A stretch of 64,000 bases of DNA, taken from Verrucomicrobia bacterium ADurb.Bin006 (GTDB taxonomy: Bacteria; Verrucomicrobiota; Verrucomicrobiia; Limisphaerales; J093). Below the pieces are notes generated by a model that searched no databases, was not told the DNA's origin, and saw only the letters and a program-made list of their open reading frames with translations. Shown here one piece after another: positions 8,578 to 30,573 of this stretch; position 1 is the stretch's first letter; each line of letters begins with the position of its first letter. Location of the stretch: NCBI GenBank assembly GCA_002071485.1, contig MWFF01000197.1, positions 31,424 through 95,423 of the forward strand, written 5' to 3'. The position numbers and the translations under genes are program-made.

Positions 8578-9473
8578 AGCATATGTCCGACCCGGGGCAT
8601 TCGACCCTCGATAGCCGACACATCGGCGCGTCGGGACGACGGGCGGTTGAGCAGGGCGCGAAGGTTCCAGCAGTGACCGGTGCCCGGGTTCGTCTCAAGC
8701 TGACGATCGCCTACGACGGGACCGGGTACGAAGGCTGGCAGATCCAGAAGACTGGTCTTGGCGTTCAGCAGCGCATTGAGGAAGCGCTGGCCCGTTTGTT
8801 CGCGTCGCATCCGCGGGTTCACGGATCAAGCCGGACCGACGCCGGGGTGCACGCCGTGGGCTTGGTGGCGCATCTGGACGTGCCGCGGGATGAGTGGCGG
8901 ATGACCGGCGCCAAGCTGCGTTTGGCGATGAACGCTCATTTGCCCGAGGATATCCGCGTCCTGAGCGCCGCGCGCTGCCGTCCGAGTTTCCATGCCCGGT
9001 TCGATGCCGTGCGCAAGCAGTATCGCTACCTGGTCTGGAATCATCCGGCGATGAACCCTCTCTGGCGCCACCGGGCCTGGCACGTCCCGCGCACGCTAGA
9101 TGCCGCCGCCATGCGCGCCGCGGCCGTATCGCTCGTCGGGCGGCGCAATTTCCAGTCCTTCACAGCCAACCCCGGTTACGGACGCGCCTCGTCCGTGCGG
9201 ACCGTGTTTCGTTGTGACGTGCGCCGGCACGGGCCGATGCTAACGTTCATCATCGAGGCCGATGCCTTTCTTTACAAGATGTCTCGCGGCATTGTGGGTA
9301 CGCTTGTGCAGGTCGGGCTTGGGAAGATCAAGCCGTCAGACATGAGCGGGATTCTCGAGTGCCGCGACCGGCGCGTAGCCGGCATGACAGCGCCGGCGCA
9401 CGGGCTTGTCTTGTGGAAGGTGACGTATGGGCGGAAGGCTCGACCGGGCCGGAGCGATTCCGGGCTGGGATGA
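8574..9473 (+). CDS. truA: tRNA pseudouridine(38-40) synthase TruA
   Basis: RLKLTIAYDGTGYEGWQIQ...RVHGSSRTDAGVHAVGLVAHLDVP contains the catalytic Asp motif RTDAGVHA. This is the C-terminal part of tracked ORF 7284..9473. ATG 8574 is favoured by the ATGA coupling; GTG 8673 is an alternative start. Confidence 0.9.
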   Translation: MKHMSDPGHSTLDSRHIGASGRRAVEQGAKVPAVTGARVRLKLTIAYDGTGYEGWQIQKTGLGVQQRIEEALARLFASHPRVHGSSRTDAGVHAVGLVAHLDVPRDEWRMTGAKLRLAMNAHLPEDIRVLSAARCRPSFHARFDAVRKQYRYLVWNHPAMNPLWRHRAWHVPRTLDAAAMRAAAVSLVGRRNFQSFTANPGYGRASSVRTVFRCDVRRHGPMLTFIIEADAFLYKMSRGIVGTLVQVGLGKIKPSDMSGILECRDRRVAGMTAPAHGLVLWKVTYGRKARPGRSDSGLG

Positions 9474-9483
9474 TTCCGGGTTA

Positions 9484-9529
9484 AGGGTCTGTGCAAAAAC
9501 TACTTCCGATTGATTCTTGCACAGACCCT
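9484..9529. other. Perfect 13-bp inverted repeat (hairpin) between truA and trmL
   Basis: AGGGTCTGTGCAA (9484-9496) pairs with TTGCACAGACCCT (9517-9529) across a 20-nt loop. No T-tract follows the stem. Confidence 0.5.
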
Positions 9530-9550
9530 AAGGCTTCCGAGCCGCATGCA

Positions 9551-10051
9551 ATGCCAACTATGGCACAACCCGATCCGTTTCACGTGGTGTTGCTCGAACC
9601 CGAGATCGCGCCCAATACCGGCAACGTAGCCCGGCTCTGCGCGGCGACGCGGACCTGCCTGCACCTGATCGAGCCGTTCGGTTTCGAGTTGGATGACCGC
9701 CGACTTCAGCGCGCGGGCATGGACTATTGGCAGCACGTCGAGTGGCGCCGTTGGCCAAGTTGGGCCGAGTTCCGCGGCCAGGTACGATCCGATGCCAGGC
9801 TCTGGTTCATCGAGTCGCATGGCCCGCGGCTTTATGCGGAAGCGGCCTTTGCCCGGGGTGATTACTTGGTGTTCGGACGCGAGACCGCCGGGTTGCCGGC
9901 GGCGCTGCTCGCGGCGCACCGGGAGTGGTGGCTGCGATTGCCGATGTTCCACCCGCGGGCCCGGTCGTTGAACCTGGCGAACTGCGTGGGCATCGTGCTT
10001 TACGAGGCACTGCGGCAACAGGGATTCGCCGGAGAAATCGGGCCATCATAG
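9551..10051 (+). CDS. trmL: tRNA (cytidine/uridine-2'-O)-methyltransferase TrmL (SpoU/TrmH family)
   Basis: FHVVLLEPEIAPNTGNVARLCAATRTCLHLIEPFGFELDDRRLQRAGMDYW...GDYLVFGRETAGLP...SLNLANCVGIVLYEALRQ is near-collinear with the E. coli TrmL sequence as I remember it. I place the start at the internal ATG 9551 (MPTMAQPDPF). Confidence 0.88.
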   Translation: MPTMAQPDPFHVVLLEPEIAPNTGNVARLCAATRTCLHLIEPFGFELDDRRLQRAGMDYWQHVEWRRWPSWAEFRGQVRSDARLWFIESHGPRLYAEAAFARGDYLVFGRETAGLPAALLAAHREWWLRLPMFHPRARSLNLANCVGIVLYEALRQQGFAGEIGPS

Positions 10052-10243
10052 TCAGATTCTTCACGGCGCGGCACAGGCGCAGATGACCAGACTGGGCCAA
10101 TGCATGAAGTGGAGCGGCGACGCCTGTCTGCCGCCGGCAAATACCGTCTTCACTCGTGTTGGCTGGGGACGAGCCGTCCCCGCTCCGGCTTTTGCGGCTT
10201 CATGAATTGGCGCAGATAACCAGAAGGGGAGCGCCTTTCTCAG

Positions 10244-10271
10244 TTGCCAAGCAGGGGTGGGTGTTTATGGT
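10244..10271 (+). promoter_or_regulatory. Candidate sigma70-type promoter for tRNA-Val
   Basis: TTGCCA (10244-10249), a 16-nt spacer, then TATGGT (10266-10271), lying 13 nt upstream of the mature tRNA 5' end. This rests on the pattern match only. Confidence 0.3.
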
Positions 10272-10284
10272 CAGGGAAGGGCTT

Positions 10285-10360
10285 GGGCGATTAGCGTAGT
10301 GGCTAGCGCGTCTCCTTTACACGGAGTAGGTCGCAGGTTCGAATCCTGCATCGCCCACCA
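10285..10360 (+). tRNA. tRNA-Val (anticodon UAC), CCA encoded
   Basis: Hand-folded: GGGCGAT/ATCGCCC acceptor stem, GCGT..GCGC D-stem, TCTCC-TTTACAC-GGAGT anticodon arm (TAC), AGGTC variable loop, GCAGG-TTCGAAT-CCTGC T-arm, then A-CCA. Total length is 76 nt. Confidence 0.95.
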
Positions 10361-10362
10361 GA

Positions 10363-10500
10363 TTTGCTGAGGAAAATGAGAAGAACCCCAACGGCGGCGA
10401 GGCCGTGACCCACCGCCACCCGCAGGAGATCATAAAGGAAGTCGCCGCGCTGGATGCGAGGAGCTCGGAGGTGCTGGCGGGCATCAGGAAACTGGTATGA
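10363..10500 (+). pseudogene. C-terminal remnant (about 45 codons) of a type I R-M subunit, probably HsdM
   Basis: The frame immediately after the tRNA reads FAEENEKNPNGGEAVTHRHPQEIIKEVAALDARSSEVLAGIRKLV*. It has no start codon, and the frame is open back into the tRNA. Its stop overlaps the next gene's ATG (ATGA at 10497-10500). The acidic/helical tail resembles HsdM C-termini from memory only. Confidence 0.35.
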
Positions 10501-11138
10501 GCGACGATGGGAATAATGCGAAGAAAGGGACCCCGGGCGAAAAGCCGTCGCCTGATTCCCATCCCTCCCATGAAGATCATCCGATCATCCCCCCGCGCGG
10601 CGATTACCAGACGCTTCACTCGTTCCACAAAGCCGAGGTGGTGTATGACCTGACCTTCCGCTTCGCGCACAAGCATCTCGCCAAAGGCGACCGCACCATT
10701 GACCAGATGATCCAGGCCGCGCGCTCCGGCAAGAAGAACCTGCTCGAAGGCAGCAAAGCCGCCCTCACTTCCAAGGAAACCGAGATCAAGCTCACCAGTG
10801 TCGCCCGCGCCAGCCTGGAGGAACTGCTGGACGACTACCGCGACTACCTCCGCGTACGCGAGCACCGCGAGTGGGACAAGGACTCCAGGGAAGCCCTCTA
10901 CGTCCGCCGGCTCGGGCGTGTGGTCCCGCAGACCTACGAGCTGTACCGCGAGTTCCTGGACACGCGCCCGCCGGAGGTGGTGGCCAACATCGCCATCTGC
11001 CTCATCCACCAAGCGAACTACCTGATTGACCAGCAGCTCCGCCGCTTGGAGAAAGACTTCCTGGAACAGGGCGGCCTGCGCGAGCGCATGTTCCAGGCGC
11101 GCCTCCAACATCGCCGCCGACACCCGCCGAAGCCTTGA
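10497..11138 (+). CDS. Four-helix-bundle protein (23S rRNA intervening-sequence / Avd-like family) with suffix domain
   Basis: YQTLHSFHKAEVVYDLTFRFAHKHL...IDQMIQAARSGKKNLLEGS...EIKLTSVARASLEELLDDYRDYL...ANIAICLIHQANYLIDQQLRRLEKDFLEQGGLRERM shows the family pattern and typical length. Confidence 0.8.
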   Translation: MSDDGNNAKKGTPGEKPSPDSHPSHEDHPIIPPRGDYQTLHSFHKAEVVYDLTFRFAHKHLAKGDRTIDQMIQAARSGKKNLLEGSKAALTSKETEIKLTSVARASLEELLDDYRDYLRVREHREWDKDSREALYVRRLGRVVPQTYELYREFLDTRPPEVVANIAICLIHQANYLIDQQLRRLEKDFLEQGGLRERMFQARLQHRRRHPPKP

Positions 11139-11347
11139 CCCACACTCAGGCCATGCCGCCCGTTTCCCCCGCGGCCCGCCCGCGCGTTTTGCGGGGCATG
11201 GGAGCTATGGGACAAATGTGCCGCCGCCTACGCACCCCCGCCACCCCCGCCGCCCAAAGTGCCGAGGTGCCCGCGAAAATCATGAGGCTGCTGTTCTGTA
11301 TTACTATCTCAGCAGCATAATCGAGTTGCTCGACTCGCTCGGTACAG

Positions 11348-11824
11348 GTGCGACCTTCAAATATTGCGGAGGGCAGCCAGGCCAGCGGGACGTCCAAGAA
11401 GATGGAACTTAAGCTCACCAACGTGGCGCGGGCCAGCCTAGAGGAATTGCGGCTGGACTATGAGGATTTTCTTCGGCAGCGGAGATTGGCGCTCTACCGG
11501 CCGAACCACCCGGCGCTGATGCGCTTCAAGGCACGGCGCTGTGCTACGCTCGATGAGGTGCGAGCCTGGGTGGCGGAAGAGGTGGGAAAGGCACGGACGG
11601 ACTCGGACGGACACAAGGCGTCGAAGGGCGTGAATGTCTCTGAACGTCCGTGTGTGTCTGTGCCGAAGCCGGAGGAGCTTGTGGCCAACGCGGCGCTCTC
11701 GCTGCTGAATCTGGCATGCTACTTCCTGAACCGGCAACTGGCGGCCCAAGCGGAAGCCTTCGAGAAAGAGGGAGGTTTCACTGAGCGGCTCTACCGTGTG
11801 CGCCAGCAGCAGCGCCGACATTAG
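11348..11824 (+). pseudogene. N-terminally truncated paralog of the four-helix-bundle gene
   Basis: It begins (GTG) inside the conserved PSNIAEGS motif: (M)RPSNIAEGSQASGTSKKMELKLTNVARASLEELRLDYEDFL...LNLACYFLNRQLAAQAEAFEKEGGFTERLYRVR. This parallels residues about 85-205 of the upstream copy. An in-frame TAA at 11318-11320 removes helices 1-2. Confidence 0.55.
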
Positions 11825-11830
11825 AGTGCC

Positions 11831-12542
11831 ATGAACGAAGCCGAGACGAAGGCCGACCGGCGTGGATGCGCAGAACATCCGCAACATCGTGTTGATGCGG
11901 CCGGTGAATTCGATGATCGAGTTCAAGCAAATCATCGGGCGCGGCACGCGGCTATTCGATGGGAAGGATTACTTCACGATTTACGACTTCGTGAAGGCGC
12001 ACCAGCATTTCCTGGACCCCGAGTGGGATGGCGAGCCCGAACCACCCGAGGCGCCCGAACCCTGCCCGACGTGCGGTCAGCGTCCGTGCGTGTGCCGGAA
12101 GAAAGTGAAGGTGAAGCTGGCGGATGGCAAAGAGCGGACCATCCAGCACATGACGTGCACGAGCTTCTGGCATCCCGACGGCACGCCCATGAGCGCGCAA
12201 CAGTTCATGGAATTGCTCTTTGGCAGGCTGCCGGAGTTCTTCCACGACGAGGACGAGTTGCGCCGGATTTGGAGCGCGCCGGACACCCGCAAGAGACTGT
12301 TGCAGGGGCTGGCTGAGAAGGGGTTCGGCCACGACCAACTCTCCGAGATGCAGCGCATCATCGATCTCGAGGCCAGCGAAGTGGCTGATTCGTGCGCATC
12401 GCACTTCTCGCGCGAAGTTCGACTGGCCCTTTCCAGGAACCGCCTGCGCAAGCCGTTGATAATTAACAAAAGGGGTAATCCGAACGTCCAACGCGCAACG
12501 TTCAACATCCAACTTTCAACGAACCGCTTCGTTGAACGTTGA
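11831..12542 (+). pseudogene. hsdR: hsdR (type I restriction R subunit, EcoEI-like) with a massive internal deletion and frameshift
   Basis: The ATG at 11831 gives MNEAETKADR, the typical HsdR N-terminal opening 'NEAETRA'. From 11862, in a different frame, the sequence reads (G)VDAQNIRNIVLMRPVNSMIEFKQIIGRGTRLF (helicase motifs V-VI). An EcoEI_R_C-like tail follows (WHPDGTPMSAQQFMELLFGRLPEFF...RRIWSAPDTRKRLL). Confidence 0.7.
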
Positions 12543-12752: not shown

Positions 12753-13541
12753 ATGAGAATGAGAAACGTGTCTCGGCCTCCGAGTCCGCTCCGGTTCGCA
12801 GTCGGCACCGCCATCGTTTGGTTGATGGCGTCTTGCGCATGGGCGGCTGATCTCGTCCAGTATCATTACAGCTTGAACGCCGATTGGAGTGACGTGGCGA
12901 ATCCGAATGGCGTTTGGTCCTACAACCACGGTGACGTGCCCATCAAGACCTATCAGACCTTCTGGTGGGGCCAAGCGGGCTGGGGCTACTATTCGAATGC
13001 CGATGGCAGCATTCTGAAAGGCAGCCCCGAGTCGGGCAAAGATCATGACTGGCTGTTGGGTGATGTGGTTATGCACTCGCTTTCTCGTAATTACGGTGGC
13101 GCAACAACCTTCCTGAATGTGAAATGGACCAGCCCCGCTGATGGAGTTGTTGATATCGCCGGTCGCGCCTGGGAGGCCGAGATCTACGCTGATCGCGACG
13201 TCCGTTGGACTCTGAGCGTGGCCGGGCAGACCGTGGCCGCGCGCGGCTCGGTTCAAGGACTGTATCGAACGGATGCGGGCGCGCAATTCGCCGCCAACGT
13301 GACGGCCGGCAGCAGCCTCCAGAACATTCCCGTCAATGTGGGCGACGTCGTGCAGTTCAGCGTGATGAGCGAGCAGGGGTACGGTCACTTTGTCGGGGTC
13401 GAAGAGAACATCACGCTCACGGTCGTTCCCGAGCCTGGCGTCGGAGCACTGCTGGTTGCGGGCGGCGCCGCTTTGGGGATGATGCGCCGCTGTCGGCAAC
13501 GTGAATCGGGGCGAGGGCCATTGGCCAGGATGGTAGAGTAA
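12753..13541 (+). CDS. PEP-CTERM sorting-domain secreted protein
   Basis: N-terminal signal (AVGTAIVWLMASCAWA). The C-terminus ...LTVVPEPGVGALLVAGGAALGMMRRCRQR shows the VPEP motif, a TM helix and a basic tail. Confidence 0.8.
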   Translation: MRMRNVSRPPSPLRFAVGTAIVWLMASCAWAADLVQYHYSLNADWSDVANPNGVWSYNHGDVPIKTYQTFWWGQAGWGYYSNADGSILKGSPESGKDHDWLLGDVVMHSLSRNYGGATTFLNVKWTSPADGVVDIAGRAWEAEIYADRDVRWTLSVAGQTVAARGSVQGLYRTDAGAQFAANVTAGSSLQNIPVNVGDVVQFSVMSEQGYGHFVGVEENITLTVVPEPGVGALLVAGGAALGMMRRCRQRESGRGPLARMVE

Positions 13542-14371: not shown

Positions 14372-17300
14372 TCACGGTCCGACCAGCAGGAGCCGGTAGA
14401 TCCGGAACGATGTGAATGGCTCGGTGAACGCGCCATCGTCGACGAACGAGTAGAAGCTCGTGGGCGACGTGATGTCGATCGGGATCGTGATCCAGGGGAT
14501 CGGGCTGGAGGCCGGGATCGTTGTGGCGTACTGGAGTCGAAAGACCAGGCCGGGGTATGTGCTCCAAGTGAGCGTCACCGTGCCGTCGGGGGCGATGAAC
14601 GGCATGTCGAGGAAGATGCCCGTCGGATCGTCATCGGCGTATTGCTCGGCCACGAGGAGGTAGGTGACGGCGCTCTGGGTCTGGTTGAACACGCGCACGA
14701 ACCAGTCGCCGGGCACCAATGGCTGCGGGACGCTGTTCGTCTTCACCTCGATGAATTCGGGAGTGATGCCGGGCGTGCCACCCAGGTAGTCGAAGAGCCA
14801 CGTTTCGGGAAGTTGGCCGAAACGCAGGGCGAGGTCGGCATCGCCGTTGAGGGGAGTCAGGCGGAACAGAGCGCGCGTGGCATTGGGGACGACGGTGAAG
14901 CGGTAGGCATCGGGGATGCAGCCCCCGCCTTCGAGAGTGCTGCCGATCGTGTTTGTGATCGTGACGCCGGCGCGGAGCACGGGCAGAAGATCGAGGCCGT
15001 AGCCGGCGCTGAGCCGGAAGGGGGTGTCGGTCGGGGCGCGATTGATGACAGCGACATACCAATCCCCGCGCAAATCGGGCACGGCATCGTTCGTGCAGAT
15101 GAGGATGCGGGTGGGGAGGCCGGGGGCGGCCTCGTCGTCGCGCAAGCTGTCGCACGGTCCCGGCCGGCTGTTGCGGCTGACCAGGAGCCGGGCGGGATTC
15201 GAGAATGATTCGAGGTCGAACTGGACGGCGGGGACGGCATTGGTGACGGAGAAGACGAAGTAGGAGCAGGTGTCGTTGCCTGGGCGGGCGGTGGCGATGA
15301 TCGGTTGATCGGCTGCCAGCGGCGTATCCGTATAGGCGTGCTGTTCTTCAACCCAGAGCCGGTATTGGACGCCGCGGTCCTCGCGGTTTTCGATGCCCAG
15401 GTACCAGTGGCCGGCGAACAGGGGGACGCAGGAGCGCTGGTTGACAACGATCACCTCGGCGTTGGTGCCGGGGCTGTTGGCGGCGTACTCGAACCAATCG
15501 GGTTGCGGGCGCAGAGGCGGCTCCGAACGCGCGTTGCGGATATAGAGGTTGAGGTCTCCGTCGAGGGGTTCGAGGTGGAATCGGACGCACACGGCTCCTT
15601 GGGGCACGGTGTAGCAGTAATACTGAAGATCGTCTGACGCGGGCATGACGGCGCTCACGCCGCCCGGGGGCAGCGGATCGAGTTCGGGGCAGATGTCGCG
15701 GTTTTCATTCGGAAAGAAATCGACCCGGAGGGCAAACTCGGCAGTGGTGGCCTGATCGTTGCGAACGCCCAGATAATAGGTGCGGCCCGGCTCGAGGCGG
15801 GGCGCGCCGGCGAAATTGTTTGTGGCCTGCAAGTCGGACGAGGTGAGCCAGGAGCCGTTGGTGGCGACGATCGCATAACCGGGTGCGTCCATGACGACGT
15901 TGGTGAGCAACCGGAAATCGCCGTACTCGGGCTCGCCGGTCGGCAACCCCTTGGCGTTGAACCAGAGGTCGATGCCGGCCGCGGCGAGGTTGGTGAGCGT
16001 GTTGAGCACCCGCTCGGTCCCCTCCGGCACATTGACCATGAAATAGCGTGTGGCGCGTGGCAGCGTGTTGGTGTAGGTCACGCCGTTGGTGAGGGTGAGG
16101 ATGGGATAGAGTGGCGGCCCGAACTGGAGGTCCAACTGCCAGGTGAGAAGCTCGGGATCGATGTCGTTGGTCGCGCCGGTCCGGCGGTCGACCACTTCGA
16201 GGCGCCAGTCCCCGACCGCGAGTTGGCCGATGAGGCTCGACATGGATTCCTCGGGCTGGAAATAGCGTGGGCGCAACTCGGTCACCTCGATCGAGTCAAT
16301 CAAAGCCCCGGGAACGATCGCTTCGAGATCGATCCGCGTGTGGGACGCCGCGGCCAGGAACGTGATCGTGTTCGTCTGCCACTGGTCGCTGTCCGAGTTG
16401 AAGACGCGGGCGCTCCGGCTCAGCCAGTTGGTGCCCCAAGCCTCGCAACCGGACATCGATGCCGCATCGTCCGCTCCGCCGACGGTCAGAAGGGTGCGCG
16501 CGCGGCCGGGGGGCGGGGCTTTGCCGACCCTGCGCATGGCATAGATGGCGTGGATTTCGTCGGCGGTAAGGGCGCGCGCATAGAGGCTGAGTTCGTCGAT
16601 GATCCCGTTGAAGCCGTCGAGGCCGCCGAGAGCCGGATGGCCCACCGCGTTGGTGGCGATGAGAAGGCTGAGGGCGTCGGGTTGAGCAAGATCGATTGTG
16701 CCGGCCAGTGAGCCGGGGAGCGCCACATGGCGATCGAGCGCGCCGTCCACATAGAGCCGCATCTCGACGCGGTCGGGGCTCACCTGACGGAAGGTGCCGG
16801 CGACGTGATGGAAGCGCTCGGTGCTGAGCGCCTCGCGGGATCGGATCAGCTCGAAGAGTGAATCTTCGGAGTCGGGATGTCCCTGGACCCACGGATCGTT
16901 GTACCAGAGTTCGACTCCCCCCTCCGGGGAGACGCCCAATCCGTAGTTGACTAGGGCATTGCCCAGGCCGTTTGTGGCAACGGATTGCCGGATGGCGATT
17001 GGTCCGCCCAGGGGTGGCGCGTTGGTGAGGTCGAGGGCGTTGGAAAGGTTGACCCAGGCCTCGATGGTCCACTGATTGGTGGTTTCGAGGGACGGGTCAT
17101 ACGGGATGACGATGTGCCCCGCGTTAGTCATGAAGAGAAAGCCTCGGCCGGGATCGGCGCAGGCGTCGTAGACGAAGGCGTTGGTGTAGCGAATCTCGCC
17201 TTCCGCATCGCCTTCACGGCCGCTTATCCGGTCGGTGAGGTTTCCTCCGCCGGGCCACCAGCCGACGATGTCCGCGGGCATCGGCTGACGCCGGTGGGCG

Positions 17301-20300
17301 AACTGGAGCCGGTACTCCTTGCCGGGCTCTGTTTTGAAGAGGCGGCTGATATGGCCGTCGCGCAGGGCGAGCAGGTTGGTGCCGGTATGGGCGACAGCCG
17401 GCGCCTGAATGACCGTGACGGCGTTCGAGAGCACCCACCAGCCGTTGGTCGGGCCGTCGTCGAGATTCGTGTCGCCGAACCACCGGGGAGCGCAAGGGAG
17501 CGAGGAGGCGCAGAAGGTGGCTGTGGGGGTGGCATCGACCCGTTCGAAGCCGCTGACCAGGCGATTGGTGAACGTGTTGGTGGCGTCGCTGGCGGGGCCG
17601 ACGTAGTTGGTGAGATAGGCGGTGCCGTTGTTCGTCAAGCCCGCCAGTTTGATCGGGAGATGGGCCACATTGGTGTCGTCGCTGAACGTGGCGAACACAA
17701 GATTCGTCGTCCACAGGTTGGTGCGGATGGCCCCCTGGTAGTCGGGGCCGGCGACCAGTTCGTTAGTGATACCCGTCGAGTCGACCAGGCGTCCGACCAG
17801 TTCTCCTGGCGGGCGGTTGGTGAGCGCGCCCGGACGCAGAAGGAGTTCGAGTCCGGATTGGTTGGTCGAGGGGCTCCAGACGAGGATGGGGCGTTCCTGG
17901 CTCAGATCCTGGGGATTGATCCAGGCGTCGATGGTGAAGCCGGGAGTGCCGGCGCCGATGTCCAGGCTCAGGCTGGCCGGGATGCGGGCGTAACCGGCGT
18001 TGGAGTTTGTGGGCAGATGCAGCGATTGGGCGACATGACCCGGCCAGTCGATCTCCGCGGCGCCAACGAGTATGGCGGGATTGTTGGTCAGGGCGTCTGG
18101 CGTGATGCCGCCCTGGAGCTCATCCATTGCCCAGCGGCTGACCAGACCGTCATCCGGCTTGCCGGCCGGCCCGAACTTATAGATGCCGCGGATTTCGGAT
18201 GCGGACAGGGCACGGCGGTAGACATCGATCTCGTCGAGGTAGCCTGGGAAACGGCCGGGGGTGTTGGTGCCGTCGAGCTTCCAGCCCAGGTAGAGGTCTC
18301 CCCGGGTGAGCAACTGATCCGACAGATCGACGCATTCCTTCTGCTGGATCCTCTCGCCATCGAGGTAAAGGGCCGCGACGCGGCTGGCCTGGTCGTAGGT
18401 GAGTGCGACGTGGCGGAAATCGCTGACGAGGGTTTCGCCGCCCCACGTTTGCCAGTTAGTGCCGCCTCGATTCTCGCTGAGGAGGACCCGCTCGCCGCGG
18501 GGTGTGACCAGGTAGACGGCGAGATCGGACGCGCGCTCGTGGTTGAGGCGGACGCCGACCTTGATCTCGCTGATCGTGAGGCCGCTGGTGAGGGCGTTGG
18601 TGCCGACACTGATCACGTCGTCGCCCAGGGCGACGATGTTGGTCGAGGCCGAATCCGACCGGAAGATGCCAGGGACGTCGTATTCGAAGCGGACGGAGAC
18701 ATAGAAGGAGATATCGGCGGCGGTGGGGTTGTAGAAGCCGAAATGGTAGAGGCCGTAGCGCAGAGGCGGATCGTCCTCGATTCCCAGGCTGAGATCGCCG
18801 CCGGTCGGGAACATGGTGGCATGGGCATCGAATCCAGTGGCGGTGGGGCGCGCGCCGCGGCGGACATAGACTTCGAGAGGGCCGGCGGAGAGGGAGCGGA
18901 CCTCGACGATCATGCGGCTGACGCCTGGGGGGACCTCGAGGTGGGCGAAGCGCCACATGTTGGCGCCGAGGGTGACGAACGCGCCGGCGAGCAAATCGAG
19001 GTTGGGGGTCAATCGGATGGTGAGGTTCTGGACGTAGCCGGTCTGGCCCAGGGCATTGTCGATCGCGGTCAGCATCCACGACCCGCTTCCTTCGACACCG
19101 ATGAAATCGTTGAGCGATCCGGGGCCATCCGTGGTGTCGGAATCGAGGAACTCGCCCGAGCCGCTGTCATCGTAGAGCATCGAGTAGACGCCGCCGAGGT
19201 CGCCGAAGCTGCGGTGGTTGTTCAGAACCATGCCGCGCGTGTTGTGGCTCAGGGCCCCCAGCAGGTCGCCGAGCAGTTCGTGGACCAGCGTGTTCGAGAC
19301 GACGACCATATTGACGTCGATCGGATACGGATCGAACGCATACACCTGGGCGTAGGCCGGCGTCACGGGCGACCCGTCCGCGATGGGCCGTGGCACGGGC
19401 AATCCCCGCAGCCAGTGGTTGCCCTGCTCATCGATGGTGGTGAAAGGCTCCATCGTCGAGAGGGCCACGATGCTGTATTCCGCCGCCATTTGATCCTCGG
19501 ACTTGACGCCGATGTAGAACACCTCCGACGGGTTCACCACCGCGTTGGAGTACATGAGTGTCTCCGACGATCCGCCGCGCTGGATCGAGCGCTCGGCGGC
19601 GGCGATCGCCTGCGGATCGAGGTCGAGCAGACGCCGGTCCCTGGACACGTAGAGGTCGATGTCCGGCTCGACATTGCGCGCAACCGAGAGGTTCAGCGGG
19701 GTGTGGAGGGCGATGGCGACGTTGGTGCCGAAGTTGGTGTACCAATCGTAGGGCGTGGGCGCATTGGTGAACACATAGAAGTGCCACTGGAGCCGAGTGC
19801 CCAACGGGTATTCGAGGAGGGGGGAGTTGGCGCCCACCCGGTCGTGGAGCCGGGGCAGGCCGTTGGTCAGCACATCGGGCGTAGGCATTGTGAACGCGGT
19901 CGAGTTGGTGGGCAGAGGCCTGAGTTCGAGGCGATTCGTTGAATCGATCGACACCACTAGCGCGTAGTCCTGGACGATGTTGTTGGTGTGGGCGGTGACG
20001 GCGTTGACGTTGACCCGGCGTCCGATCACGCGGACGGTGTAATTGGTGCTCGAGGGCAGGCTCAAGAAGACGTTCTCGACGTTGTTGATGGTATCTCTGG
20101 GGGCGTCGGGGACGCCGTTGGTGCCGACGGGGTGGATCGTATTGAAGTCGGAGTCGGGTTCGAAGTCGTTGCCATAGACGATCTGGTTGGTGCCCTGTTG
20201 CACTTCGAGATCGAGGTCGTTGACGAGTTTGGATGCCGCCGCCGGATTGCCGGGCGGGTCGGTCCAGACCAGTGTCACGCGCAGCGTGGATGGGGAGGCG

Positions 20301-22843
20301 TTGGTGGGCAACGCGATCTGGTACTCGTGCGTCTGCCCGGTCGCGAGGGCGTTTGAGGGGCTTTGATCGACCCATTGGACCGGCCAGTTCGAGGTGTCGG
20401 AGAGGGCGTTGGTGATGGCCAGGGGCAGCGTGTTGGTGAGGTTGGCGAGGCCCCAGCCCTGGTAATTGTAGGAGGCCTTCACGCCATAGCTGTACTCGGG
20501 TCCCAGAGACCGCGCCCCATTGATGATGAGGGCCTTGAGCAGGGCCGGGCTGGCGTTGGTCTCGAGATGCTGCTCGAACAACTCCTGGAGCAGGGCCAGC
20601 ATGCCTGAAACCGCCGCCGCCGAGGAGCTGGTGCCGGAATTGAAACGATAGCGCGCGCCCGGCGTGCTGTTGGTGTAGGACTGCGTGTACGGCCAGACAT
20701 AAATGCCCAGCGAATTCTCGACCAGCGTCGTCACACGGAGGTCGAAATCCACCGCCTCGGCCTGGGCCTCATCGGTCGTGATGGTATAGGTGAGCGTGCC
20801 TTCGGAAAGCGGTGTGACGACCACGTTGGTCTGGCCGGTGACATCGGCGCCGTTCAATCGCGCCCGGATGGTCAGAGGCGAGAACGGCAGGATCGTACGT
20901 TCGTTGGGAAGCGCTTCGATCTCGAGGTAAACGACGTTGGAGGCGACCGTGTAGACGTAGGTGTTTGTCTCGCCCGGAAAGACGATTTGCTGGGCGTAGG
21001 TCTGGACCACGCGATTGGTCACCAGGCCGTTGGTTGGCCAGTCGTCGATCCATGTCGAGTAGACGAACGTGCCCGGCGCGACCACGTCGGGTTTGAAGCG
21101 GCCCACTTCGCTTTCGAATCCGATGCCGACGTTGCCGCGGCTCGAGAAGGGCGCGACCTGGCTGTCGCTGTCCGTTTCGGAGAAGGTGTATTGCCCTGCC
21201 TCGATATTCGTGACCGTGATCGGTTCGCCGTTCGTGTCGATGACGTCGATGATGTTGGTGACAATGTTGGTGATATAGACGAAGCGATTGAGCTCGGTCG
21301 CCCCCACGGTCAGGACGTTCTTGGCCGTGCCCGGCGAGGTGATGGTGCCGGGCTCGCCGCCCGTGCCGACGTCATTGCCCGCGCCGCTGTTGCCGGCGGC
21401 GAAGACGAACAGGAGTGCCTGCGGACCGGGCGTGTAGGGCAGGGCATCGCGCGTGGCGGCGTCGTAGCTGGCGGCGGACGAGTCGTATTCGAAACGTCCC
21501 GGGTAACCCCAACTGTTGTTCGAGATCAGGATGTTGGTCAGGCTGTGATTTGTTCCGTACCGCGTGTTGGCGGCGGTCTCTTGCAGGTAGGCGTCCGAGA
21601 TGGTCGGTCCGCCGTCCAGGTCGATCGGCAGCACGAACAGGCTGGCGGCGGGGGCGATGCCGCGGAAGACCGCGTTGCTGAGCGAGCCGTACACGTTCGT
21701 GCCGGCCGTGACGCTGGTCCCAAGTCCGATGATCGTCCCGGCCACATGGGTGCCGTGGCCATTGGTGTCGACCAGGGAGGCGGCGTTTGTGTCGCCGTAG
21801 ATTCGGTGCTGCCCGCCCAGCATCAAATCGGGGTGATTGGTCTTGACGCCCGAATCGTTCACATTCACGCAGATGTTCGATCCGGTGAGGGGCAGGGTCA
21901 GATTCGTCGATGCCCCGCCGTCGACTGTGTTCCAGAGCACGCCCATGCGCACGCCGGTCAGGTCGTTCATGGGAAGCCGCGCGACCCACGGCTCGACCAA
22001 CTGGACTTCCGGCAGGCAGGCCAGCGCGGCCACTTCGCCCGGAGGCGGCTCGACCACGAACTGCGGGCCGAATGGGGATCGCGCCTCGGCCAGGATGTTG
22101 GCGCCGATGGCTTCGAGTGCATGGCGCGCGCCAGCCCCGCTCTCGGGCAGGAGCGTGACGCGCAGGCGCGCCCGGGGCGGCAGCGGCTGCTGCTCGGCGG
22201 CGAGTTCGAGGAGGCTCGGATCGATCTTGAAGTAAGGCTCGAAGGGTATCACGGCCCGGGCCGAGCCGGAGACCCGGAGGGCGTGCGCCGCCGATGCGGA
22301 CGCGCGCACCAGATAGGCGTTGTTCGGGATGTACGAGACGATGTCGGCCCCTTGATCGGCAAGCGCGGCGCGAAAGGCCTCGGTGATTGGCCCCTTAGCC
22401 TGGATCACATAGCTCCCCGGTTCCTCGCCGGTCTTGAGGTGCGGCGGCAAGGACAGGGGAACGTCCGAGGCGGTGTCGATCAGGGCGTTTCGGAGGAGGA
22501 TGGCGGAGTCGCTGTGGGCGAGTTCGCGGATCGGCTTGGACGTGTTGCGGACGCGGCGGGGGAACTGCGGATCGACCGTCGGCTCTACCGCATCGGAGTC
22601 GGGCGCGATCGCGGCGGCGGATTGGTCCATGGGCCTGACCGCGGCGGGGAGGGGGGTGAGATTGGTGAGCAACCGGACATCTGGCGTCGGTTCAGCGCTT
22701 TCCGAGGCTGTCTGAGCGGTTCGGGTCAAGCGGTCCGAGGGTGCGATCTTTTCAAGGGCAGCGCGGCGATGGGCGAGTTGCCAGAAGCCGAATGCGCCCA
22801 GGAGGCAGGCCAGAACGAAAAATGACCGTGTTCGTGACGTCAT
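14372..22843 (-). CDS. Giant S8 subtilase with P-domain-like, LamG and pre-peptidase-C-terminal-like modules (2823 aa)
   Basis: N-terminal signal anchor (SFFVLACLLGAFGFWQLA). Catalytic motifs: Asp VNVNDSGVKTNHPDL, His NGHGTHVAGTIIG, Asn NNSWG, Ser FNSGTSSSAAAVSGMLALL. LamG-type endings occur twice (LDEIDVYRRALSASEIRGIY; IDELSLYARALTADEIHAIY). Four PPC-like modules are present (YFMVNVPEG..., YYCYTVPQGAVCVRFHLEPLDGDLNLYI, SYFVFSVTNAVPAVQFDLES, AYRFTVVPNATRALFRLTPLNGDADLAL). The gene starts 39 nt after the upstream K-like gene. Confidence 0.9.
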   Translation of the reverse strand: MTSRTRSFFVLACLLGAFGFWQLAHRRAALEKIAPSDRLTRTAQTASESAEPTPDVRLLTNLTPLPAAVRPMDQSAAAIAPDSDAVEPTVDPQFPRRVRNTSKPIRELAHSDSAILLRNALIDTASDVPLSLPPHLKTGEEPGSYVIQAKGPITEAFRAALADQGADIVSYIPNNAYLVRASASAAHALRVSGSARAVIPFEPYFKIDPSLLELAAEQQPLPPRARLRVTLLPESGAGARHALEAIGANILAEARSPFGPQFVVEPPPGEVAALACLPEVQLVEPWVARLPMNDLTGVRMGVLWNTVDGGASTNLTLPLTGSNICVNVNDSGVKTNHPDLMLGGQHRIYGDTNAASLVDTNGHGTHVAGTIIGLGTSVTAGTNVYGSLSNAVFRGIAPAASLFVLPIDLDGGPTISDAYLQETAANTRYGTNHSLTNILISNNSWGYPGRFEYDSSAASYDAATRDALPYTPGPQALLFVFAAGNSGAGNDVGTGGEPGTITSPGTAKNVLTVGATELNRFVYITNIVTNIIDVIDTNGEPITVTNIEAGQYTFSETDSDSQVAPFSSRGNVGIGFESEVGRFKPDVVAPGTFVYSTWIDDWPTNGLVTNRVVQTYAQQIVFPGETNTYVYTVASNVVYLEIEALPNERTILPFSPLTIRARLNGADVTGQTNVVVTPLSEGTLTYTITTDEAQAEAVDFDLRVTTLVENSLGIYVWPYTQSYTNSTPGARYRFNSGTSSSAAAVSGMLALLQELFEQHLETNASPALLKALIINGARSLGPEYSYGVKASYNYQGWGLANLTNTLPLAITNALSDTSNWPVQWVDQSPSNALATGQTHEYQIALPTNASPSTLRVTLVWTDPPGNPAAASKLVNDLDLEVQQGTNQIVYGNDFEPDSDFNTIHPVGTNGVPDAPRDTINNVENVFLSLPSSTNYTVRVIGRRVNVNAVTAHTNNIVQDYALVVSIDSTNRLELRPLPTNSTAFTMPTPDVLTNGLPRLHDRVGANSPLLEYPLGTRLQWHFYVFTNAPTPYDWYTNFGTNVAIALHTPLNLSVARNVEPDIDLYVSRDRRLLDLDPQAIAAAERSIQRGGSSETLMYSNAVVNPSEVFYIGVKSEDQMAAEYSIVALSTMEPFTTIDEQGNHWLRGLPVPRPIADGSPVTPAYAQVYAFDPYPIDVNMVVVSNTLVHELLGDLLGALSHNTRGMVLNNHRSFGDLGGVYSMLYDDSGSGEFLDSDTTDGPGSLNDFIGVEGSGSWMLTAIDNALGQTGYVQNLTIRLTPNLDLLAGAFVTLGANMWRFAHLEVPPGVSRMIVEVRSLSAGPLEVYVRRGARPTATGFDAHATMFPTGGDLSLGIEDDPPLRYGLYHFGFYNPTAADISFYVSVRFEYDVPGIFRSDSASTNIVALGDDVISVGTNALTSGLTISEIKVGVRLNHERASDLAVYLVTPRGERVLLSENRGGTNWQTWGGETLVSDFRHVALTYDQASRVAALYLDGERIQQKECVDLSDQLLTRGDLYLGWKLDGTNTPGRFPGYLDEIDVYRRALSASEIRGIYKFGPAGKPDDGLVSRWAMDELQGGITPDALTNNPAILVGAAEIDWPGHVAQSLHLPTNSNAGYARIPASLSLDIGAGTPGFTIDAWINPQDLSQERPILVWSPSTNQSGLELLLRPGALTNRPPGELVGRLVDSTGITNELVAGPDYQGAIRTNLWTTNLVFATFSDDTNVAHLPIKLAGLTNNGTAYLTNYVGPASDATNTFTNRLVSGFERVDATPTATFCASSLPCAPRWFGDTNLDDGPTNGWWVLSNAVTVIQAPAVAHTGTNLLALRDGHISRLFKTEPGKEYRLQFAHRRQPMPADIVGWWPGGGNLTDRISGREGDAEGEIRYTNAFVYDACADPGRGFLFMTNAGHIVIPYDPSLETTNQWTIEAWVNLSNALDLTNAPPLGGPIAIRQSVATNGLGNALVNYGLGVSPEGGVELWYNDPWVQGHPDSEDSLFELIRSREALSTERFHHVAGTFRQVSPDRVEMRLYVDGALDRHVALPGSLAGTIDLAQPDALSLLIATNAVGHPALGGLDGFNGIIDELSLYARALTADEIHAIYAMRRVGKAPPPGRARTLLTVGGADDAASMSGCEAWGTNWLSRSARVFNSDSDQWQTNTITFLAAASHTRIDLEAIVPGALIDSIEVTELRPRYFQPEESMSSLIGQLAVGDWRLEVVDRRTGATNDIDPELLTWQLDLQFGPPLYPILTLTNGVTYTNTLPRATRYFMVNVPEGTERVLNTLTNLAAAGIDLWFNAKGLPTGEPEYGDFRLLTNVVMDAPGYAIVATNGSWLTSSDLQATNNFAGAPRLEPGRTYYLGVRNDQATTAEFALRVDFFPNENRDICPELDPLPPGGVSAVMPASDDLQYYCYTVPQGAVCVRFHLEPLDGDLNLYIRNARSEPPLRPQPDWFEYAANSPGTNAEVIVVNQRSCVPLFAGHWYLGIENREDRGVQYRLWVEEQHAYTDTPLAADQPIIATARPGNDTCSYFVFSVTNAVPAVQFDLESFSNPARLLVSRNSRPGPCDSLRDDEAAPGLPTRILICTNDAVPDLRGDWYVAVINRAPTDTPFRLSAGYGLDLLPVLRAGVTITNTIGSTLEGGGCIPDAYRFTVVPNATRALFRLTPLNGDADLALRFGQLPETWLFDYLGGTPGITPEFIEVKTNSVPQPLVPGDWFVRVFNQTQSAVTYLLVAEQYADDDPTGIFLDMPFIAPDGTVTLTWSTYPGLVFRLQYATTIPASSPIPWITIPIDITSPTSFYSFVDDGAFTEPFTSFRIYRLLLVGP

Positions 22844-22882: not shown

Positions 22883-25800
22883 CTATTCGCTGAGGACCTC
22901 ATTGAAGTTTTCGACGACAGCTCGGGGGGTGTCGAGCGGCCCATCGAGGCGAACGACGGACCGGGTGACGCATTCGCTCTTGACCTGGTAGTTGGTGCAC
23001 ATGCGGTTGAAGATGCCTTCGCCGAAGTAGAGCGAGTTGGGCGCTTCCTTGAGCGTCTGGCCGAAGGCGTAGACCACGAATCGGGGTTCATCCGCCTTGA
23101 GCAGCGAGAGAATCTGTTGAGGGATGCGCTCGAGCACTTCGTCGCGTGGCCAGACCGGCAGTTTGCGGGGGAGCATGCCTGTGCTCCCGGGGGTGGCCGG
23201 TGGACTGGCGAAGGTCAGTTCCGGCGTGGCCAGGATGCGTCCGAGGGAATCGAAGTAGGGCGCATGGACGCCGATCAGGAGGTTGGTTTCCTGCGCGCGG
23301 GTGCGATTGATGCCATCGACAATCTTCTGCAGGGTGCTGAGGTTGGTAGCCGAGGGTTCGAACAGGTTTGATGACACCTGATCGAGGAAGAGTTCGTCGA
23401 GGGCGCCGGTGTCGTCGATGGGGAGGAGCACGCTGACTCCGCTCAGGACGGCGGCCCAGGCGGCCAGGTTGTCCTGATTGACCGAGAGCAGGCCGCGCTG
23501 CGCGTTGTCGGTGGGGGCGGTGGTGAACAGGTCGGCCAGAGTCCAGTCGTTGGTTGGATGGGTGCCCTGGCTGCCCGCCCAGCGGTACCACGAGGTCTGG
23601 GTCGTCGTGTTGGTGTCGGCGATGTCGGCCTTGAGATAGACCGTCTGCCACGGGGTGCCGCGGTGGACGCGTCCGATCCAGCCGACATTGGGGAATTTGT
23701 TGGTGGGAAAGGCCCAGTCGTCCGAGCGTTCGATCAGAGGGTCTTTGACCCGGATATCGCGGGCCAGGACATCGGCCGACTCGTTGGGATTGCCGCCCCA
23801 AGGCCGGTAGCGCTGGTTCAACAAACCGAGGTTCGAGTTGGTCAGGGTGATTTGAGGCGGGATGGCGAACCGGACGGCGTTGGTGCGATTGGGGTCGTTG
23901 GGCGGGTTGAAGGGATCGAGCAGATCGCCCAGGGTGTAGTGGACCAGGGGGTCATTGGCCTGCCAGGTGATTTCCTGATAGACCTTGCGTGTGGGCGAAT
24001 AGCCGGCCTGGATGGCCAGTTTGCCCGCGATCTCCTGCGCCAAACGGTCCCGTTCCCGCTGGCTGGTGTAAGTGAGGGGTGTCAGACCGCAGAACAGACG
24101 CAGCCGGTCGATGCTCCGTTCCTTGTCGCGTCCCTCGGCGGAGACGGCGCTCCAACTGCGCCACTGCTGGGCGCTGGTGGTGATGTTGCCGAGCGAGATG
24201 TCGATCTGGTTTTGCACGCCCAGGGTCGGCGCCAGCAGGTCGGTGGACCCGCCGACGCGATTGGTGAGCCAGGTGTTGGGCGGTTCGGAGGCCGAGCCGG
24301 CTACCGAGGCGAGTTGGGCGCGACCGGCGATCTCGCGGCTCAGGTCCATGACTCCCTTCATGTTGCCGAGGCAGACGAAATCGACGAGCCGGTTCGGGGT
24401 CACGCTTTGGTCGACGAGCGCGTAGAAGAAGCGGTTCGTGAATTCGAGCGCCAACTGCGGCATGTAGAACCCCTGGTTCGGGATGAAGTTGATATCCGTG
24501 CCGGCGGGAATGAACTGGCCGGTCTGGGGGTGGTACATCACGTTCGAGAGGACCACCAGCGACTGCGAGACGGGGAGGACGAAGTGGTTGGAGGGCCATG
24601 TCGCGAGCGTGAAATTCGTGGTGTAGGGCAACTCGCCGAACACGCCGTTGAGCGGAACCGTGCTGTCGAGGTTCGTCACGGCGATCCTGAAGTCCCCCTT
24701 CACGACGACCTGGAGTGCGCGGTTCACGCTCTGGGTGTACGAGTTCCAGGCTTCCAGTCCGATCTTGTTCGACACGGTGAGGAAGTAGAGCAGGTTGGTC
24801 TGGGAGGGCAATTCGTGCAGGGTGCGTTTTCGGACCTCGGTCTTTCGGGTGACTTGAGCGACGTTGAGCATCGCGATCTCGTTGAAGTTGGGCCATCCCT
24901 TCTTGGCGCCGATCACGAACGGTACGTCATAGACAACCGCGTAGGGATCGTTGACGAGCTGGGCGCGGTCGGCGGCGGAGCTGAGGTCGTAGGTCTTTAG
25001 GCTGTTGACCACGGACGCATTCGTCACCTCGACATAGTCCCGGATGAGGATGCTCGAACCGTCCTGGTCCAGCCCGAAGAGCGGGCGCATCACGGTCGGA
25101 TGATGCGGTCTGTTCGCGGCCGCGCCGGTCAGGTGTCTCTGGCCGGTGGCGTCGTAGAGGTTCAGGGTGAGTTGGAGGAGGCGATGCAAGGCGGGCGAGT
25201 ATTCGTTGAAGGGGTGGATGCGGATGTTGGTGATGGACATGCCGGGGCGGACCAGGTACTCGCCGATGTATGTGTTGGTGTAGACCGCGCCGCCGCTCAC
25301 GCGGACGGATCGGATGGTCCGATGGGCCTGGATCAGACGGTTGGCGACATTCGCGAAGAAATCGTGAGGCTCCCACGACACGAGGTTGGTCGCATGGTAC
25401 GGGGCGAGATTGTTGTAGTTCAGGTTGATCTTCCGATCGGTGGGCGCGACCGAGTCCATGCCCATCTGGCCGAGCATCCGGTAGAGCGTGTAGCGGTCGT
25501 AGGTGGAGGGCTGGGCCTGGGCCAGGATGATTCCGGACAGCCAGCGGCTGGGCGCTTTGTTCGTGTTGAAAAGGTCGTTGATCTCGTAATAGCTGCTGGC
25601 GCTCTCGCTCCCTGGCCAGGGCAGGGTGGGATCGTCGTTGTCGGTGGTCAACGCCTCGGTCCCGGTGAACGGCGGGCCGTCGGCGTACATGTCGATGTAA
25701 TCGTTGCGCAGGACGTTGGCCATGCTGACTTGATTCCAGAAGAACCAATCGCGGGCGGGCGCGAGCGTGTTGTAGTTGCCGCCATAGCGGTGCCGTAGGA

Positions 25801-26686
25801 AATCGAGGGCGGTGAGGAAACAGGCTCCGGACTGCGAGCCAGCGAGGCCGCGGTAGTCGTAATTGGGCCAGGCGTTGGTGTTCAGATGATGGAGGAACGC
25901 GCCCAGATTCAATTCCCACGGCCCGACGCCCTGGTTGCGGAAGAACCGGCTGTTCACCATCGCTGCGTCGCCTCCTCTGGCCCCGGCGTTGTTATGGATG
26001 AAGTTCAGATCGAGGCTCTTGCCGGCGGGGAGGACCATGTAGGCATAGCGGCCTGCGAAGCGGTTTGTCGCCGAGTGGGGGTAGTCGGGATGCTGAAGAA
26101 CGGCGATCCACTCGGGATCTCCCACCAGGTGTTCGAGGAGTATGTTCGTTCCGATGCCCGTGCGAATCGTCCGGCCATTGTGATCGAGGATTGGCTGCAG
26201 TCCGTTGGTCTCGAAACGCCCGTTCCGGTTCAGATCGAGGTAGAATCGGAAGTCGAGATTGGTTCCGTCGCTGACGAACACCGGCGCGCGTGGGTCTAGG
26301 ATCAGGTTTGCGATGTTGCGCAGGCGATCGCGTCCGGTCACCGGAGCCGAGTTGCCCAGGAGATGGTCATAATTGACGTTGGTGGGGGTGAGTTGCTGCC
26401 AGTCGAGGCTGGGATTGAAGCCGACTGGGCTGATGTAGTTGGTCGACACCATCAGGTCGTAGGCGTAGGGGCTGTTGTTCGCCTGCATCCGGGCGACCAC
26501 CTCGGCCTGGGCGCGCGCCAGGGCGGCGTCGGCCATCAAACGGGACGTGTTCTGTTCTTCGGTGACGGCCACCGCTGACCGTTCGCGTCGGCTGACCGCC
26601 AGGAACGTGATCGCCATGAGGGTGACGACCGCCAACATGATCAGTGTGATGACCAGGGCGACACCGCGTTGTGAATGAGACTTCAT
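22883..26686 (-). CDS. Giant GspK-like minor pseudopilin (1267 aa; 'Verru_Chthon cassette protein A'-like)
   Basis: The N-terminus MKSHSQRGVALVITLIMLAVVTLMAITFLAVSRRERSAVAVTEEQNTSRLMADAALARAQAE matches the GspK-type hydrophobic segment plus following helix. The start overlaps the upstream stop (ATGA at 26683-26686). The position after H/I/J-like genes fits. I could not assign the remaining ~1200 aa. Confidence 0.72.
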   Translation of the reverse strand: MKSHSQRGVALVITLIMLAVVTLMAITFLAVSRRERSAVAVTEEQNTSRLMADAALARAQAEVVARMQANNSPYAYDLMVSTNYISPVGFNPSLDWQQLTPTNVNYDHLLGNSAPVTGRDRLRNIANLILDPRAPVFVSDGTNLDFRFYLDLNRNGRFETNGLQPILDHNGRTIRTGIGTNILLEHLVGDPEWIAVLQHPDYPHSATNRFAGRYAYMVLPAGKSLDLNFIHNNAGARGGDAAMVNSRFFRNQGVGPWELNLGAFLHHLNTNAWPNYDYRGLAGSQSGACFLTALDFLRHRYGGNYNTLAPARDWFFWNQVSMANVLRNDYIDMYADGPPFTGTEALTTDNDDPTLPWPGSESASSYYEINDLFNTNKAPSRWLSGIILAQAQPSTYDRYTLYRMLGQMGMDSVAPTDRKINLNYNNLAPYHATNLVSWEPHDFFANVANRLIQAHRTIRSVRVSGGAVYTNTYIGEYLVRPGMSITNIRIHPFNEYSPALHRLLQLTLNLYDATGQRHLTGAAANRPHHPTVMRPLFGLDQDGSSILIRDYVEVTNASVVNSLKTYDLSSAADRAQLVNDPYAVVYDVPFVIGAKKGWPNFNEIAMLNVAQVTRKTEVRKRTLHELPSQTNLLYFLTVSNKIGLEAWNSYTQSVNRALQVVVKGDFRIAVTNLDSTVPLNGVFGELPYTTNFTLATWPSNHFVLPVSQSLVVLSNVMYHPQTGQFIPAGTDINFIPNQGFYMPQLALEFTNRFFYALVDQSVTPNRLVDFVCLGNMKGVMDLSREIAGRAQLASVAGSASEPPNTWLTNRVGGSTDLLAPTLGVQNQIDISLGNITTSAQQWRSWSAVSAEGRDKERSIDRLRLFCGLTPLTYTSQRERDRLAQEIAGKLAIQAGYSPTRKVYQEITWQANDPLVHYTLGDLLDPFNPPNDPNRTNAVRFAIPPQITLTNSNLGLLNQRYRPWGGNPNESADVLARDIRVKDPLIERSDDWAFPTNKFPNVGWIGRVHRGTPWQTVYLKADIADTNTTTQTSWYRWAGSQGTHPTNDWTLADLFTTAPTDNAQRGLLSVNQDNLAAWAAVLSGVSVLLPIDDTGALDELFLDQVSSNLFEPSATNLSTLQKIVDGINRTRAQETNLLIGVHAPYFDSLGRILATPELTFASPPATPGSTGMLPRKLPVWPRDEVLERIPQQILSLLKADEPRFVVYAFGQTLKEAPNSLYFGEGIFNRMCTNYQVKSECVTRSVVRLDGPLDTPRAVVENFNEVLSE

Positions 26687-29470: not shown

Positions 29471-29480
29471 GCCAAGCCTC

Positions 29481-30365: not shown

Positions 30366-30573
30366 AATCTGAGAGGACTGGTTTCTTGAGGAGAACTTCC
30401 AAGGGAAAACAAAGGCGGCCGGGCGCGCGCCTCGCAGTCGAGGCCGGGATCGGCGGCGGCTGCCATCGCCGCGCGTCCCCCGAATCGGGACCGACCAGGA
30501 CGGCGCCGACCATCGGACGGTCAGTTTCAGCCGGCCTGACGGAGGGATGTTGAGGCCGATAGTCATGTCGCGG

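Follow-up and report, generated by a model that had tools for sequence, protein, structure and literature searches.

Exported proteins of the window and their C-terminal tails

Verrucomicrobiota degrade polysaccharides and are abundant in soil, water and gut, and the delivery of their giant extracellular enzymes and adhesins to the cell surface is poorly understood. A 64,000-nucleotide stretch of DNA from Verrucomicrobia bacterium ADurb.Bin006 (contig MWFF01000197.1, positions 31,424 to 95,423; G+C content 63%), referred to below as the window, was analyzed. Three of the large proteins that are encoded in the window and predicted to be exported end in a short C-terminal module, the tail module, which is the subject of this analysis. 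The three host genes are designated as A, B, and F, and positions given without a locus name are positions in the window.

Gene A (884-5890, forward strand) encodes a protein of 1668 amino acids (aa) with a CotH domain, four LTD (lamin-tail) domains, a CHB_HEX_C_1/Fn3_assoc region and TSP3_bac. Gene B (14372-22843, reverse strand) encodes 2823 aa with Peptidase_S8, P_proprotein and two Laminin_G_3 (LamG) domains. Gene F (59097-62792, reverse strand) encodes 1231 aa with HpiC1-like and Ig_3/I-set domains, and its close relatives were all found in metagenome-assembled genomes (MAGs) of Verrucomicrobiota, including subdivision 3 and Limisphaerales-like bins. Signal-peptide-like N-termini are present in A, B, and F alike. 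Within the signal peptide of F (62700-62792, reverse strand), the residues LAAC fit a lipobox, and F may be a lipoprotein.

The tail of A occupies 5666-5887 on the forward strand (74 aa), follows TSP3-type repeats, and ends in ARWYRVRVE directly before the stop codon at 5888-5890. The tail of B was modelled as 82 aa (14375-14620, reverse strand), of which approximately the last 74 constitute the module proper; it ends in FRIYRLLLVGP, and the stop codon is at 14372-14374. The tail of F (59100-59288, reverse strand; stop codon 59097-59099) is 63 aa long and ends in SFFRVVNP. The terminal Arg is followed by four residues in F (FFR + VVNP) and A (WYR + VRVE), and by six in B (IYR + LLLVGP). The C-termini of A, B, and F quoted in a preliminary description of this DNA match the translations of the window exactly. 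When all stop-to-stop open reading frames (ORFs) of at least 100 aa in the six frames of the window were collected (n = 270), the pattern [FWYI][YF]R[VLI] was present in the last 12 residues of three, and these are A, B, and F only.

Relationship of the tails and extent of the family

Pairwise BLASTP among the tails of A, B, and F revealed nothing significant, and their relationship therefore depends wholly on profiles. The last 449 aa of A had 231 homologues, and among the best 120 of these, 103 end in an aromatic-aromatic-Arg/Lys-aliphatic motif, the typical ending being RFYRLVTPxxP after TSP3-like repeats. A profile of these A-type tails built without A scored A at 38.8 bits, and A alone matched it in hhalign with an E-value of 7.2e-11. 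For the F-type profile, 45 loci were fetched via homologues of F, and jackhmmer was run with the F tail on all their ORFs. It converged on 20 members, consisting of F orthologues and unrelated proteins, and in each of them 0-6 residues lie between the module and the stop codon. Word-indexed protein searches with the tail of 70 aa or with an alignment of 15 tails found no more than a few short fragments. In hhalign, the A-type and F-type profiles matched each other over 56 columns, the whole module, with a probability of 97.6% and an E-value of 2.7e-12. Several tails score with both profiles, such as those of 9188-12319 in locus L025, 9557-13228 in L009 and 3-323 in L002. The match between the profiles and the tails shared by them indicate that A and F are homologous modules representing two subtypes, a relationship that, judged from sequence, is very probable.

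The position of B was examined with the same profiles. Against the broad F-type profile, B scored 11.9 bits, which ranks 28th among 1067 ORF C-termini and was reached by none of 2000 shuffles. A jackhmmer search seeded with an unrelated tail (9713-16486 in L011) reached both F (1.6e-9) and B (independent E-value 3.7e-8, 31 bits), while searches seeded with A or B alone revealed no matches in the local locus set. In hhalign, B alone matched the A-type profile with an E-value of 2.1e-5 over 63 columns including the terminal motif, and the F-type profile with 5.8e-5 over the first half of the B tail only. An alignment with MAFFT placed the Trp/Phe of strand B, the central Trp and the final Arg in register across all three tails. 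A metagenome scan for relatives of B found one 95%-identical copy with the same tail and one distant relative whose C-terminus lies outside its locus. As the sole retrievable tailed relative is 95% identical, no independent profile of the B tail exists. The B tail probably belongs to the family.

An alternative explanation is that the tails are not homologous and resemble each other in no more than a short motif and beta-strand patterns of a generic kind. The lack of significant pairwise BLASTP matches would be expected from such a chance resemblance, as would the score of A against the F-type profile, which is only 6.3 bits and was reached by 11 of 2000 shuffles (F, the founding member of that profile, scores 83-100 bits). 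Chance is nevertheless difficult to reconcile with the profile-profile match and the members scoring with both profiles, with the terminal motif falling on precisely the three real giants among the long ORFs, and with the transitive search that reached B, whose predicted strand order also agrees. As a whole, chance resemblance is very improbable, and for A and F it is largely refuted. The view of the preliminary description that the three tails are one kind of module, and that profile-profile comparison should reveal it, is upheld, with the link of B weaker than that between A and F and with a small beta-sandwich as the predicted fold.

Systematic screening of 1.84 billion cluster representatives was performed with an exhaustive profile search, using an alignment of F and nine fragments as the query. 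It yielded 10,386 representatives at E-values of up to 1e-3, a number that includes cross-matches to ordinary Fn3 and Ig repeats, and 1,044 at up to 1e-10. The family is very large and is centred on Verrucomicrobiota. Of the fetched loci, a small sample gathered through F homologues, 23 are verrucomicrobial (374 kb) and 22 come from other phyla (297 kb); the module was present in 18 of the former and in none of the latter. Named members belong to Limisphaera (an isolate among them) or to Verrucomicrobia MAGs, and the source annotation covers only their other domains. A cultivable carrier is Limisphaera sp. VF-2, which encodes WP_423444393.1. Among the best 120 A-type homologues, the sources also include MAGs labelled Clostridia, Chloroflexi and Methylomirabilota, reflecting either a wider range or contaminated bins. 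In two metagenome loci (L048, 821-8307; L050, 1657-6281), CotH/LTD giants related to A are split into consecutive ORFs on the same strand; the splits may be frameshifts, assembly errors or real pseudogenisation.

The position of the module was analyzed in 158 proteins, consisting of the best 150 matches and the other fragments of the query alignment. In 103 of the 105 single-copy proteins (98%), the module ends no more than 6 residues from the C-terminus. The remaining 53 proteins contain multiple stretches, and in 31 of them a copy is again found at the end. When the ORFs of the fetched loci were pooled with those of the window, 29 of the 30 with the module carried it within 6 residues of the stop. 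Signal peptides are frequent: 27 of 46 complete members have one under a crude rule, and visual inspection suggests more. These counts bear out the expected enrichment at the extreme C-termini of exported proteins. The hosts are otherwise unrelated, with architectures including proteases, CotH/LTD proteins, Ig arrays, LamG proteins and beta-propeller repeats, and one neighbourhood can contain several copies (three each in the window, L028 and L030). As the module occurs on many unrelated architectures, it appears to have been acquired repeatedly, always at the end. A-type tails regularly follow TSP3-type calcium-binding repeats and a linker of the form GT(D/N)P...S.L(R/K) (5500-5665 on the forward strand in the window, and P0159-P0278 among the matched proteins), which suggests that repeats, linker and tail are a conserved cassette moving as one unit.

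True tandem arrays are also present. They contain 2-8 copies with a period of 63-72 aa, each copy with FYRL and a short Pro-rich linker (P0012, P0014, P0016, P0027 and P0089). These proteins consist mostly of module copies, and in most of them the last copy lies at the C-terminus or a few residues from it. The profile further cross-matches classical Fn3 arrays, whose repeats recur about every 90 aa (P0018), and Ig-like repeats with a YQWQ motif (P0011 and P0013). The preliminary description had held that an internal position as an ordinary Fn3 or Ig repeat would contradict a sorting role; tandem and internal copies and cross-matches to such repeats do occur, while the large majority of copies is terminal.

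Predicted fold and comparison with known domains

The tails of F and B were modelled with AlphaFold, with a predicted local distance difference test (pLDDT) value of 91.1 and a predicted template modelling (pTM) score of 0.74 for F, and values of 85.5 and 0.72 for B, whose model was built on an alignment of other tails and is not independent evidence. Both models are sandwiches of five to six strands with the identical strand order A-B-C-C'-E-F. Foldseek revealed no significant match in the PDB; the best matches were Fn3-like domains (3mpc, TENCON, and the Fn3 domain of CtXyl5A in 5g56) with template modelling (TM) scores of 0.6-0.67, and the C-terminal domain (CTD) of a type IX secretion system (T9SS) substrate, 5hfs, was listed at 0.55. 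Profile searches of PDB sequences gave weak matches only, mostly to Fn3, and found no entry covering the module.

The strand motifs map to strands B, C, C', E and F of Fn3. The module would be a compact Fn3-like beta-sandwich of 55-75 residues, composed of strands A, B (with the conserved Trp/Phe), C (Y-x-L/V-Q), C' (with the Trp), E and F, and strand F would be formed by the closing aromatic-aromatic-Arg-aliphatic motif. The chain ends soon after this motif. In 94 of 103 F-type proteins, it ends 3-4 residues past the conserved Arg, and in 83 of the best 120 A-type homologues, 4 or 7 residues past it. In the Fn3-like structure 3mpc, the chain runs about 30 residues beyond the aligned YYYV of strand F. 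An end 3-7 residues past the Arg suggests that the seventh Fn3 strand, G, is missing. Taken together, the models and these lengths point to an Fn3-like sandwich that lacks strand G.

The module was compared with known domains and C-terminal tags. No model of Pfam-A (2025 copy) or NCBIfam (June 2026) covers the last 60-80 residues of A, B, and F, and no match appeared on the tails even at E-values of up to 10. Full-text literature searches found no description of the tail module, and a paper on C-terminal sorting signals treats only short Cys-containing or PEP-CTERM-type signals.

Fn3 domains (PF00041; 3mpc and 5g56), which gave the best structural matches, resemble the module in the Trp of strand B, the Tyr-x-Val of strand C and the Tyr-x-Tyr-Arg-Val of strand F, and Fn3 arrays are weakly cross-matched by its profile. 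Unlike Fn3, the module is about 25-30 residues shorter, is predicted to lack strand G, and is almost always terminal. Pfam fn3 did not match any of ten tails at E-values of up to 10, and the sole fn3 match in the F protein is below the cut-off and covers residues 85-122, outside the tail. Seven strands including strand G define the Fn3 fold, while the models contain five to six strands and the chain ends 3-7 residues past strand F.

The CTD of T9SS substrates (TIGR04183/PF18962; 5hfs) is similar in several respects. It is a beta-sandwich of about 60-80 residues at the extreme C-terminus of unrelated, often giant proteins exported by Sec. It is present in many copies per genome, is centred on a phylum, and is divergent in sequence with few conserved positions. 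The structural likeness of the module to it is moderate, and it takes the same terminal slot in Bacteroidota and related (Fibrobacteres-Chlorobi-Bacteroidetes, FCB) loci, in which 8 of 9 large proteins tested end in the TIGR04183 sorting domain. The two differ in that there is no sequence match and the conserved motifs are others, and the module is found in Verrucomicrobiota and forms tandem arrays; neither cleavage nor a sortase-type partner is known for it. The type A model TIGR04183 (cut-off 23 bits) matched neither the giants nor their tails, while tails from eight Bacteroidota and related loci, used as positive controls, scored 24-44.5 bits. No T9SS component (PorU/PorV/SprA and others) was noticed among the ORFs scanned in the 64-kb window. 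T9SS is not known in Verrucomicrobiota.

PEP-CTERM, the tag paired with exosortase, is likewise a C-terminal element of many unrelated exported proteins, and it occurs in the same genome. A protein of 262 aa encoded at 12753-13541 on the forward strand carries a genuine PEP-CTERM signal, which TIGR02595 scores at 20.2 bits with a cut-off of 16, and served as a positive control, while TIGR02595 did not match the tails of A, B, and F. The distinction between these tails and PEP-CTERM drawn in the preliminary description is therefore correct, and the genome uses at least two kinds of C-terminal element. PEP-CTERM is not a folded domain; it is a motif of about 25 residues with a transmembrane helix and a basic tail.

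The bacterial pre-peptidase C-terminal (PPC) domain (PF04151) is likewise a beta-sandwich. It is located at the C-terminus of secreted proteases, S8 enzymes among them, and has a presumed role in secretion. The module shares this position and type of fold, while its host range reaches far beyond peptidases. No Pfam match to PPC was found in B or any tail. The module is most closely filed as a truncated Fn3-like domain in terminal use, which resembles a C-terminal sorting domain and fits no known definition.

Possible role and the pseudopilin neighbourhood

These observations as a whole are best explained by one divergent Fn3-like domain family that is terminal on exported proteins, with targeting or retention as its most likely role, an explanation with about an even chance of being correct. 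The module would be a C-terminal targeting or retention module on proteins exported by Sec. Large extracellular proteins bearing it would, once exported, be singled out for transport to the cell surface or for attachment there, in a logic parallel to that of the T9SS CTD of Bacteroidota. Recognition would likely involve the exposed edge of strand F together with the free C-terminus close to it. The targeting or anchoring function taken by itself is proposed tentatively, by analogy, and is quite possible without being probable. The preliminary description had suggested a sorting, anchoring or secretion-recognition role; position and distribution make such a role plausible, and as a positional and distributional analogy it is not established.

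Several points weigh against this explanation. The three tails within this genome are only about 10-25% identical, and B is the weakest member, its membership resting on moderate statistics. The origin of the B model, the small lineage sample and the cross-matches among the 10,386 representatives, all mentioned above, have the same direction, as do the tandem and some internal copies. Among eight orthologues, the tail of F is conserved to a similar degree as the remainder of the protein, and no better. Not every exported giant of the window has the module: the fourth, a glycosidase-like protein of 1691 aa with a signal peptide (43094-48169, reverse strand; a partial match to the aceric acid hydrolase model NF049879 at 338 bits, below the cut-off), is without it, and the preliminary description, which had spoken of three giant secreted proteins and placed the module on all of them, is slightly too broad and holds for A, B, and F. 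No partner machinery was identified.

Some of these points would be expected if the module were an ordinary structural or ligand-binding Fn3-like end domain, that is, a stalk, a cap or a glycan- or protein-binding unit, which inherits its terminal position with the domain architecture and takes no part in sorting or secretion. Fn3 domains are the nearest folds and make up most of the weak sequence matches, and the profile cross-matches classical Fn3 and Ig repeats. Tandem arrays are typical of structural or adhesive Fn3 and Ig modules, while no sorting tag, the T9SS CTD included, is known to form them. Such arrays and non-terminal copies, the ordinary rate of sequence evolution of the F tail and the lack of an identified partner keep this interpretation alive. 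It is less easily reconciled with the terminal position of nearly all single-copy members and the tightly fixed chain length past the conserved Arg, with the repeated acquisition at the end of unrelated architectures, or with the T9SS sorting domain filling the same terminal position in Bacteroidota and related loci. In addition, Pfam fn3 leaves the tails unmatched even at permissive E-values, yet the two subtypes match each other strongly. A purely structural end domain is rather doubtful on this balance, and is a possibility to be taken seriously.

The neighbourhood of B offers a candidate for partner machinery. Directly upstream of B, on the same strand and with a gap of 39 nucleotides to the start of B, lies a pseudopilin cassette (22883-31317, reverse strand) with matches to N_methyl and GspH. 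Together with 32071-32865 (reverse strand), it contains five to six prepilin-type genes, including a pilin-like giant of 1267 aa, and these genes show weak N-terminal matches to Verru_Chthon cassette A/B/D and GspG/H/K. B is the apparent last gene of this pseudopilin operon, and the cassette is a possible functional partner of B. The place of B after the pilin cassette is reminiscent of minor-pilin operons that also encode large adhesins.

Six verrucomicrobial loci contain a single prepilin-type ORF each, which lies directly next to a tail-bearing gene on the same strand (L002, 253-1221; L004, 19822-20796; L008, 7859-8689; L022, 8380-9246; L026, 5201-6190; L028, 13986-14789). These ORFs encode 255-290 aa, and an H-x9-DG-like motif is present at the C-terminus of most of them. 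Under a null model with crude gene calls, the adjacency has a joint probability of roughly 2e-4, and L002 and L008 are orthologous and not independent. Genes of the pilin type do not adjoin A or F, whose neighbours encode a 3-keto-disaccharide hydrolase, a DAO oxidoreductase and a HAD hydrolase. An N_methyl neighbour was found in none of seven genomic contexts of A-type tails. Elsewhere in the window, an ORF of 1252 aa (51145-54903, forward strand) resembles the DNA polymerase III alpha subunit in its C-terminus by eye; it is cytoplasmic and has no tail.

On the basis of the cassette next to B, the module could serve in recognition by, or docking to, a type II secretion system (T2SS) or pseudopilus, including the prepilin-type proteins with H-x9-DG-like motifs that are abundant in Verrucomicrobiota; a pseudopilin would bind the incomplete sandwich or present it. 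The short distance between B and the cassette and the adjacency in six loci favour this explanation, while the neighbours of A and F, the seven A-type contexts, the orthology of two of the six loci and the crude gene calls are against it. Known T2SS substrates, moreover, carry neither a linear nor a terminal signal. As a general explanation it is unlikely. The suggestion of the preliminary description that the module is read by the neighbouring pseudopilus system retains the B operon and the six loci and does not extend to A, F and the A-type contexts; the pseudopilin link is suggestive, a lead for a subset of genes and no general rule.

A more specific form of the targeting explanation can be considered, in which Verrucomicrobiota would possess an undescribed pathway for surface delivery or anchoring. 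The module would label the cargo of this pathway, as a functional counterpart of the T9SS CTD, and would act through strand complementation. The open edge of strand F with the free C-terminus would be completed by a strand of the partner in place of strand G. Candidate partners would be an outer-membrane component or the prepilin-type proteins (H-x9-DG-like or Verru_Chthon-cassette-like) adjoining several tail genes. In this specific form, the proposal is speculative and improbable.

The domain is present in at least thousands of protein clusters without a Pfam or NCBIfam model, and the value for annotation alone justifies modelling it; with such a model, exported surface proteins could be recognized in these genomes. 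Should the module be no more than a structural cap, it is still a defined short variant of Fn3. If it is a sorting or anchoring tag, it opens a search for its partner by phyletic profiling, as once paired PEP-CTERM with exosortase, and would provide a handle for surface display in Verrucomicrobiota.

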